In this document: one piece after another, positions 58,922 to 59,620 of the stretch
How positions within the stretch are numbered: the stretch's first letter is position 1
How the letters are laid out: every line of letters begins with the position of its first letter
Assembly: GCA_051117335.1 (NCBI GenBank)
Contig: JBNPEB010000063.1
Span: 12,955-76,954 of the forward strand
Reading direction: 5' to 3'
Origin: Elainellaceae cyanobacterium
GTDB taxonomy: Bacteria > Cyanobacteriota > Cyanobacteriia > CAZCXK01
Length of the DNA stretch: 64,000 bases
Notes under the pieces: model-generated
Seen by the model: the letters and a program-made list of their open reading frames with translations, nothing else
Told to the model about the DNA's origin: nothing
Database searches by the model: none
Made by a program: the position numbers and the translations under genes

Positions 58922-58953
58922 TTGCGAATTCAATAGGCTTGAACACAATAACT
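58922..58953 (+). promoter_or_regulatory. Putative alternative-sigma promoter upstream of the repeat peptide
   Basis: TTGCGAAT(58922-29)-N18-ATAACT(58948-53). Confidence 0.6.
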
Positions 58954-58999
58954 GAATAGGGTGCGATCGCCCCCGCCTATATCTAATTCAGAGACATTC

Positions 59000-59134
59000 A
59001 TGAGTAGATGGGCGTCAAAAAATATGGCTTCTTGTAGGATGGGTTAGCGATAGCGTAACCCATGCTGCCAGAGGGTTTGATGCGTTACGGCTATGCCTAA
59101 CACGTCCTATGTTTAATTGTGACCACCTACTCAT
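59000..59134. repeat. REPIN/MITE-like element
   Basis: Inverted ends ATGAGTAG/CTACTCAT; two inverted GTAG-type REP hairpins (gtaggatgggttagc..taacccat and ..taacacgtcctat). Confidence 0.65.
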
Positions 59135-59206
59135 CTGACACCGTGAGTTGTCGGGTTTTGAATGTCTTAACCAGTGATTCTAAATGTACTTAGGAGAGCC
59201 CCCGTT

Positions 59207-59473
59207 ATGTCTGATGAGAATCAATTAACTGATCAACTAGAGCACACCTCTTCGTCTTTCGATGAAACTGAACAACCCGTGACACCCCAGTCAAATGGTC
59301 GTACTCACAGCCCCAATCCTTTTGAGAGATTTCGCCTTAATCCATTCAGAAGACCTCCTCGCAGAGGAGGGTCGCACTTGACTCAGGGATTTCGCCTTAA
59401 TCCATTCAGAAGACCTCCTCGCAGAGGAGGATCTCATCTAATGGAGACTCCAAGAGACGAAAATTCCAATTAA
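59207..59473 (+). CDS. 88-aa peptide with duplicated FRLNPFRRPPRRGGSHL core, putative precursor or signal peptide
   Basis: AGGAG RBS before ATG 59207; acidic leader; 43-bp exact repeat at 59328 and 59388 (60-bp period); downstream hairpin. Confidence 0.7.
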   Translation: MSDENQLTDQLEHTSSSFDETEQPVTPQSNGRTHSPNPFERFRLNPFRRPPRRGGSHLTQGFRLNPFRRPPRRGGSHLMETPRDENSN

Positions 59474-59576
59474 CAGAAATTCAATTGACTGTTCCATCTT
59501 GCAGAGCAACTGCCTCGCCTGTCTCACTCATTTTAATTGAGATGGTTTAGCAGGCAGTCAGCAACTTCTCCCAACT

Positions 59577-59620
59577 AAAAGCATTTCCACTGAAGCACTT
59601 CAGAGGAGATGCTTTTTCTT
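59577..59620 (+). terminator. Intrinsic terminator-like hairpin after the peptide gene
   Basis: aaaagcatttcc-actgaagcacttcaga-ggagatgcttttt. Confidence 0.6.

Follow-up and report, generated by a model that had tools for sequence, protein, structure and literature searches.

The EACC2-caspase systems of cyanobacteria, as described in the available text of Kaur et al. 2021 (PMC8195603), join a caspase and a variable sensor in one protein, and are encoded together with a DUF1822 protein and an extracytoplasmic function (ECF) sigma factor. The same text proposes a 'sigma factor regulating a multiplicity of genes' for EACC2 modules, and presents the EACC2-caspase-CHASE2 modules with their own sigma factor as widespread in cyanobacteria and known from computer analysis only. 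No substrate, signal or output of these modules was met in the literature found, as far as its text was available. The DNA considered here is a window of 64,000 nucleotides from an Elainellaceae cyanobacterium (assembly GCA_051117335.1, contig JBNPEB010000063.1, positions 12,955 to 76,954 of the forward strand), and coordinates are counted from its first letter unless another contig is named. Its subject is a small open reading frame (ORF) of 88 residues at 59207..59473 on the plus strand, directly behind the membrane sensor of such a module. This small ORF is held, with somewhat better than even confidence, to be a real, lineage-specific gene for a small protein that forms an accessory part of the module cassette. 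It is probably fast-evolving, and it is conserved in position and regulation and not in sequence.

The module containing the small ORF (module 2) encodes, in this order, a 506-residue sigma-like protein (p506), a DUF1822 protein, a CHAT-CHASE2 sensor, the small ORF and a LuxR regulator. The EACC2-caspase, sigma and DUF1822 neighbourhood is present here, the sigma match being weak (p506 matches Sigma70_r4 only, E = 0.075). The sensor, an EACC2/CHAT (caspase-like)-CHASE2 membrane protein recognised by Pfam CHAT and CHASE2 (56369..58855, plus strand), carries the catalytic-type motifs FFAGHS and FNSCSG, with H and C respectively, and its CHAT domain lies N-terminal to the first membrane segment. 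The LuxR/GerE-family regulator (Pfam GerE; 59905..60585, plus strand) likely begins at the ATG at 59971, as judged from alignment, and its syntenic orthologues are 31-41% identical. Module 1 of the same window has the order weak sigma70-ECF protein (218 residues, sub-threshold match, E = 9.4e-6), DUF1822, CHAT-CHASE2, DUF928 (33472-34287) and two-partner secretion (TPS) exoprotein. An earlier note on this stretch had placed the small ORF in the slot of the module 1 DUF928 gene, and the gene order agrees: the small ORF follows the CHAT-CHASE2 gene of module 2 and fills there the slot held by DUF928 in module 1.

The small ORF would form a short transcription unit of its own, with a promoter-like motif overlapping a conserved element, a Shine-Dalgarno sequence before the ATG and an intrinsic terminator. 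The frame listing and the translation MSDENQLTDQLEHTSSSFDETEQPVTPQSNGRTHSPNPFERFRLNPFRRPPRRGGSHLTQGFRLNPFRRPPRRGGSHLMETPRDENSN give the ATG at 59207 and a stop codon ending at 59473. The ribosome-binding site, regulon motif and terminator that the earlier note had read around this frame were all recovered, as AGGAG, as a strict motif at 58922 and as a fold with z = -3.6. The Shine-Dalgarno sequence AGGAG (59192..59196, plus strand) lies 10 nt 5' of the ATG; a 5-mer of this kind stands before 10% of 2082 long genes vs 2.8% of 2007 random ATGs, a likelihood ratio of ~3.6. The promoter-like 'regulon' motif, TTGCGAAT-N18-ATAACT (58922..58953, plus strand), is found 5' of the ORF. Its strict form, TTGCGAAW-N17/18-ATAACT, has four sites in the 5.9-Mb genome, all within the window (29215+, 34505+, 49349- and 58922+), as compared with a chance expectation, by rough arithmetic, of ~0.2 copies per genome; the regulon motif of the earlier note is upheld by this distribution. 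These sites precede module 1, a TPS gene at 34536, a minus-strand operon for TPS-like, TPR-CHAT and B12-radical-SAM proteins, and the small ORF. The half-motif TTGCGAAW is enriched within the window (14 matches vs 6.8 expected), and the 8-mer TCAATAGG shows no enrichment.

A conserved DNA element with the consensus ACTG[AC]ATA[GC]G-N12-17-CCTAT is the sole piece common to the spacers of different lineages in blastn comparisons. Copy 1, ACTGAATAGG-N15-CCTAT (58951..58980, plus strand), lies 5' of the small ORF and overlaps the -10-like ATAACT, and copy 2, ACTGAATACG-N15-CCTAT (59629..59658, plus strand), lies 5' of the LuxR gene. The pattern occurs in the genome of the window at these two places only (58951 and 59629), flanking the small-ORF unit. 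In all, nine sites are distributed amongst five genomes, one before the small ORF and one before LuxR, genome G028 having a single copy; a variant is visible in the locus L162, and regular-expression scans did not find the element in Moorena or in the locus L169. The distance from copy 1 to the ATG is 256 nt, or 121 nt after subtraction of a 135-nt insertion, vs 102-109 nt in the genomes G201, G285 and G016. The element may be part of a promoter or a LuxR operator, and its sequence does not tell which; the promoter of the small ORF would be co-regulated with the module and with LuxR. Behind the ORF, the inverted repeat I1 and its fold mark an intrinsic terminator (59577..59620, plus strand), in which a long imperfect stem is followed by UUUUUCUU. 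The stem-loop covers 59577-59616 and precedes a U-run, and the region 59474-59640 folds at -46.5 kcal/mol (z = -3.6), none of 200 shuffles being as stable; a simple terminator scanner made no call at 59577-59616. The order of terminator hairpin and then element copy 2 is common to the window, G201, G285 and L162.

The 88-residue product consists of an acidic head (residues 1-40, charge -7.3), a basic duplicated core (residues 41-79, charge +10.9) and a short acidic tail. It contains neither a signal peptide nor Cys, has no hydrophobic segment, and its grand average of hydropathy (GRAVY) is -1.55. Because it is very hydrophilic and without signal peptide, it should be cytoplasmic. The 17-residue core FRLNPFRRPPRRGGSHL is present exactly twice, encoded by a 60-nt direct repeat (59325-59376 and 59385-59436, spacing 60 nt), and is followed by a third, partial NPFER copy; acidic leader, doubled core and partial copy can all be read in the sequence as the earlier note had reported them. 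Aligned by codons, repeat unit 1 is ER-FRLNPFRRPPRRGGSHL-T (59324..59383, plus strand) and repeat unit 2 is QG-FRLNPFRRPPRRGGSHL-M (59384..59443, plus strand), the two having a 43-nt identical run in common and differing at 9 positions. Synonymous changes fall in the four adjacent codons for G, S, H and L (GGG/GGA, TCG/TCT, CAC/CAT and TTG/CTA), and non-synonymous changes in three codons. When the differences are placed at random, at least four synonymously changed codons arise with p = 0.011-0.013. The earlier note had taken the changes in the S and H codons as a hint of protein-level constraint; these changes are present, together with those in the G and L codons, and from this pattern protein-level constraint on the repeat is supported. 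Tandem Repeats Finder reported no tandem repeat in the small ORF, because the repeat amounts to under two full copies. The 17-nt palindrome CCTCCTCGCAGAGGAGG within the repeat has two occurrences in the 5.9-Mb genome, both in the small ORF, so it is no hairpin element scattered through intergenic DNA, which the earlier note had named as a refutation of its reading. The repeat region has a lower folding energy than its shuffles (z = -2.6), and paired CCUCCUC/GAGGAGG hairpins are found in the small-ORF region.

With CHAT-CHASE2 as query, the cassette of CHAT-CHASE2, small ORF and LuxR was found to recur in 11 other genomes from six lineages. The full cassette, with p506 and DUF1822, is present in the two Leptothermofonsia genomes G201 and G285 (tblastn), whose CHAT-CHASE2 orthologues are 50-51% identical to that of module 2, and in part in G028 and G016 (42-44% identity). 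Further cassettes, from a scan across all species genomes, belong to two Leptolyngbyaceae metagenome-assembled genomes (L162 and L169) and five Moorena records. Each lineage possesses its own, unrelated-looking small ORF between CHAT-CHASE2 and LuxR, of 104 residues in Leptothermofonsia, 115 in G028 (P0005), 41 and 56 in G016, 87 in L162, 160 in L169 and ~70-94, with a C-terminal hydrophobic helix, in Moorena. All these slot ORFs encode hydrophilic proteins containing a patch rich in Arg, Lys and Pro (P 10-27%), and a Shine-Dalgarno sequence precedes the ORF in all those inspected (G201, G285, G028, L162 and G016). The conserved element, too, is found upstream of the ORF in these five. The Leptothermofonsia slot ORF (sp. 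ETS-13, P0006) is annotated by NCBI as a hypothetical protein. Between G201 and G285 its 104 codons are 87% identical in nucleotides and free of indels, with 9, 11 and 20 differences at the three codon positions and a ratio of non-synonymous to synonymous substitution (dN/dS) of 0.30; judged from these substitutions, the Leptothermofonsia counterpart is a real gene under purifying selection. Short internal repeats, two to three in number, are held by the slot ORFs of G028 and G016, those of G028 being three T[VI]PR[FS] copies ~37 residues apart with synonymous codon differences. No repeated core is present in the Leptothermofonsia or Moorena slot proteins, and the cores are not conserved between lineages. 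Amongst the slot ORFs, the only homologous pairs are that of a single genus (G201/G285, 80-81%) and the pair of G016, and in the transcribed part no nucleotide conservation between lineages was found besides the upstream element. The short homologues beside CHAT-CHASE2 genes that the earlier note had proposed to look for exist as positional counterparts only, with none at the level of sequence, and a variable core copy number cannot be shown because there are no homologues.

Two of these loci have additional genes. In L137 (G016:C688:6800-9800), CHAT-CHASE2 is followed by an inserted 251-residue gene that is read from the other strand, and the ORFs of 41 and 56 residues, Pro/Arg/Lys-rich and paralogous to each other (Smith-Waterman p < 0.001), lie between both element copies. 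In L167 (Moorena sp. SIO3H5), and in no other Moorena record, a 428-residue Arg/Lys-rich ORF at +808..2092 past CHAT-CHASE2 separates the small ORF from LuxR; its N-terminus may resemble mobile nuclease proteins of the RRXRR/IscB type. At 26 loci of other LuxR paralogues, no small ORF recurs consistently upstream and the element is missing from the matching position, a single CTGnATAGG match being seen 934 nt 5' of the LuxR paralogue in L120.

Most sister modules carry a different kind of gene in the slot, namely an ORF of 183-282 residues that starts within ~60 nt of the CHAT-CHASE2 stop (22 of 31 loci, and 14 of 24 in a second set), with a signal-peptide-like N-terminus and a divergent DUF928 domain; the copy in the genome of the window, at C47:84987-85325, scores 29 bits on PF06051. 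A hidden Markov model (HMM) of the N-terminal motif of 23 such slot DUF928-like proteins, drawn from 54 loci, has the consensus 'rpprrGGs', which equals RPPRRGGS of the small ORF, and it matches the small ORF twice, at 6.5 bits. The duplicated core has in this way the signature (R/K)PPRRGG(S/T) of these exported proteins. The score is reached by 0.35% of whole-sequence shuffles and by 0.2% of shuffles of the core only, values that should be doubled because another motif model had been tried before; of the genome's 63,349 small frames, 53 equal it. A wider form of the motif, F.RR..PP.PR.GGSR, can be followed by eye only, the upstream F and basic residues being found also in FRLNPFRRPPRRGGSH. 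Amongst the other lineages, the L162 slot ORF matches the same motif positions with KPRRQGGT (shuffle p = 0.008), and in one Moorena slot ORF a different stretch of the model is matched (p = 0.019); the remaining slot ORFs show no match. The classical DUF928 motif, (F/Y)xPPxxGxPGRRxGGGTRGxC, found ahead of the domain in 27 proteins, gives 0.7 bits on the small ORF, equalled by 10-15% of shuffles, and the likeness to this classical motif is explained by composition. A PF06051 scan of the genome gave five matches, none of them at the small ORF, and tblastn found no DUF928 remnant in any frame of 58800-59950, the best E-values being 0.1-2.

Several results weigh against a real gene. Length alone is no more than chance would give, as the genome contains 63,349 stop-to-stop frames of 40-150 residues, and an open frame this long is not improbable in a spacer of 1 kb. 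The codon score of the small ORF is -0.048 per codon, as compared with 0.133 +/- 0.063 for gene segments and -0.146 +/- 0.094 for spurious frames; only the head looks genic (+0.10), the codon usage of the core being non-genic (-0.21 per codon), and the likelihood ratio of coding to spurious is 0.04 overall and 0.23 by synonymous choice alone. No homologue of the 88-residue protein was found. A word-indexed search through 5.8e9 proteins had no candidate, and the three HMMER matches amongst 1.84e9 representatives are all repetitive junk proteins. Searched in six frames, 61 related genomes yielded noise only, one of them being 100% complete and from the same genus. The 185,579 species genomes and the JGI metagenomes, scanned with the back-translated sequence, had no match. 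Alignment to the other slot ORFs also fails, with Smith-Waterman p = 0.67-0.96 vs G201, G285 and G028, 0.10-0.15 vs L162 and 0.019, uncorrected, vs the second G016 ORF (G016b), and hhalign E = 0.27. As to the motif, the match is 8 residues long and belongs to the second model tried, and five of the seven slot-ORF lineages tested have no motif match at p < 0.01.

Further searches gave similar results. An alignment of the small ORF and the Leptothermofonsia protein anchored at the N-terminus gave p = 0.07 to 0.98. No usable match to the 88-residue protein was found in the ESM Atlas, and Pfam, even at E = 10, and NCBIfam, precursor families included, had nothing for it. The slot ORFs of G028 and Leptothermofonsia are orphans too. 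Two candidate matches were rejected: the best six-frame match (E = 5.5e-4) contains three internal stops, and a match on contig C23 of the same genome comes from a frame antisense to a globin-like gene. An Rfam scan gave one chance-level match and no credible family at the small ORF. One metagenome DNA run (X1) yielded no contig over 59209-59634, and short contigs over parts of the neighbour genes and both mobile elements. The small ORF is considered probably a real, species-specific gene.

The same results can be read as those of a non-functional frame in a transcribed spacer, in which the element and the terminator delimit a leader, a non-coding RNA or a LuxR regulatory region, the ORF, the Shine-Dalgarno sequence and the 60-nt duplication are incidental, and the CCUCCUC/GAGGAGG hairpins are RNA structure. 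The orphan status in all searches, the non-genic codon usage of the core, the abundance of frames of this length, the folding of the repeat region below shuffles (z = -2.6) and the different ORF at the slot in every lineage fit such a spacer. It is judged unlikely nonetheless. Against it stand the synonymous-only differences in four adjacent codons (p ~0.01), the Shine-Dalgarno sequence at the right distance, the protein-level match to the slot motif, which is controlled for composition (p = 0.002-0.0035), and the purifying selection on the Leptothermofonsia ORF in the corresponding position. No Rfam family was found, and a conserved RNA is not indicated because there is no cross-lineage nucleotide conservation beyond the upstream element. 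The likeness of the core to the signature motif of the slot DUF928-like proteins, and the DUF928-type ORFs of 183-282 residues in the slot at 22/31 and 14/24 loci, suggest in turn a decayed, non-functional remnant of a DUF928-like gene, of which the N-terminal motif region was kept and later duplicated; MITE-like insertions (of the miniature inverted-repeat transposable element type) on both sides of the small ORF indicate a spacer being reshaped. This origin appears rather improbable. No other DUF928 trace was detected in 58800-59950 by tblastn or the PF06051 scan, nor does the ORF have a signal peptide, the conserved Cys or a downstream domain; it has, on the other hand, its own promoter element, Shine-Dalgarno sequence and terminator. 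The cassettes closest in CHAT-CHASE2 (50-51%) carry a small ORF and LuxR, not DUF928, so the small-ORF state looks old. Taken jointly, the remnant and non-coding readings would account for about a third of the weight.

The earlier note had inferred a precursor of a multicore ribosomally synthesized and post-translationally modified peptide (RiPP) or of a signalling peptide. Under this reading, maturation would depend on the leader, CHAT would set the cores free at GG or Arg sites, and the freed peptide would pass a signal through CHASE2. The layout of a leader and two identical cores, the three CHAT proteases within the window, the operon of the B12-radical-SAM gene (minus strand, 49318 to 38827), which begins with the strict motif also found at the small ORF, and the two to three short internal repeats in the G028 and G016 counterparts all speak for it. 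No peptidase-transporter, exporter, maturase or cyclase is encoded beside the small ORF in the window or beside its counterparts in the 11 syntenic cassettes, and a peptidase-transporter is missing from the rest of the window as well. The sole radical-SAM gene of the window (38827-40269) lies 19 kb off, matches no specific family and remains below all NCBIfam cut-offs, scoring 57.9 bits on the RiPP enzyme ApyD where 750 are required. Neither a signal peptide nor a double-glycine leader with its transporter is present; the cores are unconserved, the Leptothermofonsia and Moorena counterparts lack a repeated core, and Pfam, NCBIfam and the ESM Atlas show no likeness to precursor families. With no adjacent maturase or transporter and no homologues, a RiPP or signalling-peptide precursor is very improbable. 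A role as ligand of CHASE2, also put forward in the earlier note, is likewise unsupported, as the product has neither signal peptide nor hydrophobic segment (GRAVY -1.55); a cytoplasmic protein would need an exporter to reach the periplasmic CHASE2, and the neighbourhood encodes none.

If the small ORF is a gene of the cassette, its product would serve the caspase-sensor circuit as an accessory regulator. Most plausibly it would act in the cytoplasm, as substrate or decoy of the Arg-directed caspase-like domain, and be cut at its RR sites. The topology would permit cleavage by the CHAT protease, and the Arg pairs fit such cleavage. The substrate or decoy role is plausible because the CHAT domain lies N-terminal to the membrane segment, the H and C motifs are present and orthocaspases cut after basic residues, as stated in the available text of PMC6426788. 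Alternatively, the small protein may modulate the output of the co-regulated LuxR, as the co-occurrence and the shared element of the two genes would suggest. A broader proposal, regarded as doubtful, is that all slot proteins, exported DUF928-like as well as small cytoplasmic ones, share a basic Pro/Arg-GG(S/T) tag recognised or cut by the module. Under this proposal the small ORF would be a two-copy stand-alone tag whose cleavage frees short cationic peptides or a LuxR arm, and would provide the first candidate substrate and a simple assay for EACC2-caspase systems.

The spacer around the small ORF also holds mobile elements. The MITE-like insertion of 135 nt at 59000..59134, with 12-nt terminal inverted repeats (inverted repeat I5), lies in the 5' leader. 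An 89%-identical copy is found in the same-genus genome G002 beside unrelated genes, and its central palindrome of ~33 nt is scattered through the genome of the window, with 24 matches. A palindromic repeat of ~94 nt (59774-59867) lies between element copy 2 and the LuxR gene, and has >70 copies in the same genome and many in both same-genus genomes.

Elsewhere in the window, the minus-strand operon headed by the strict motif (38827-49349) encodes a TPS-type exoprotein of 2071 residues, a TPR-CHAT protease and the B12-binding radical-SAM protein. The strict motif ends directly at the listed ATG in both TPS genes, and their true starts may lie further downstream because the motif abuts the listed ATG. 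Looser copies of the motif, TTGCGAAA-N17-TATAGCT or TATTAGA, are found at 29178(-), 50635(-), 51812(-) and 53214(-), several with AATAGG..CCTAT inverted repeats inside them. Downstream of looser copies are genes for an RTX-repeat protein (49529-50383), a beta/gamma-crystallin-like protein (50786-51193) and a methyltransferase (52157-53107). A third module lies ~10 kb downstream on the same contig, outside the window (G000:C47:79579-85500; L036, L051); its CHAT-CHASE2 is 41% identical to that of module 2, and a DUF928-like gene overlaps its stop and is followed by a TPR protein. A nitrogenase cluster at 571-11811 comprises NifS, NifU, NifH, NifD/NifK-type, NifX-like and DUF269 proteins, together with a fused protein of 953 residues with two nitrogenase component-1 regions, so the organism is a diazotrophic cyanobacterium.

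The small ORF can be compared with several known systems. Precursors of multicore RiPPs, such as the cyanobactin type, consist of a leader followed by tandem cores. The acidic leader, identical tandem cores, and basic and GG sites of the small ORF resemble them, whereas a neighbouring set of maturase, protease and transporter and a family match are lacking. The morphogen peptides PatS, PatX and HetN carry RGSGR. Like them, the small ORF is short, cyanobacterial and in part rich in Arg, Gly and Ser; it differs in its context, which is a caspase-sensor cassette and not heterocyst patterning genes. The earlier note had kept its RRGGS apart from RGSGR, and rightly so, as RGSGR is absent and the sequence reads RRGGSH.

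Like the EACC2 system, the locus has an upstream gene with an N-terminal constant module, caspase/CHAT and CHASE2, preceded by DUF1822 and a sigma-like protein, and a promoter-like motif on several nearby genes that fits the proposed multi-gene sigma factor. For these modules, the available text of PMC8195603 mentions neither a small ORF nor a LuxR-type regulator nor a DUF928 partner; here the last two genes of the cassette encode a small orphan protein and LuxR, each behind the same element. This variant, with its shared element and DUF928-like core motif, was not met in the literature found, supplements aside. The locus shows a variant of the module that has a small orphan protein and a LuxR regulator in place of its usual DUF928 partner, and would exemplify a class of genes conserved by position and regulation that homology-based annotation misses. 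If the motif is a recognition or cleavage tag, the 88-residue protein would be an easy first biochemical handle. From DUF928 (PF06051) and the DUF928-like genes the small ORF differs in lacking the PF06051 domain, signal peptide and conserved Cys, in its length (88 residues vs 183-282) and in having its own promoter element in place of a start that overlaps the CHAT-CHASE2 stop. It resembles the DUF928-like slot proteins in occupying the same slot and in a core that equals their motif consensus, F..PP.PR.GGSRG..C.

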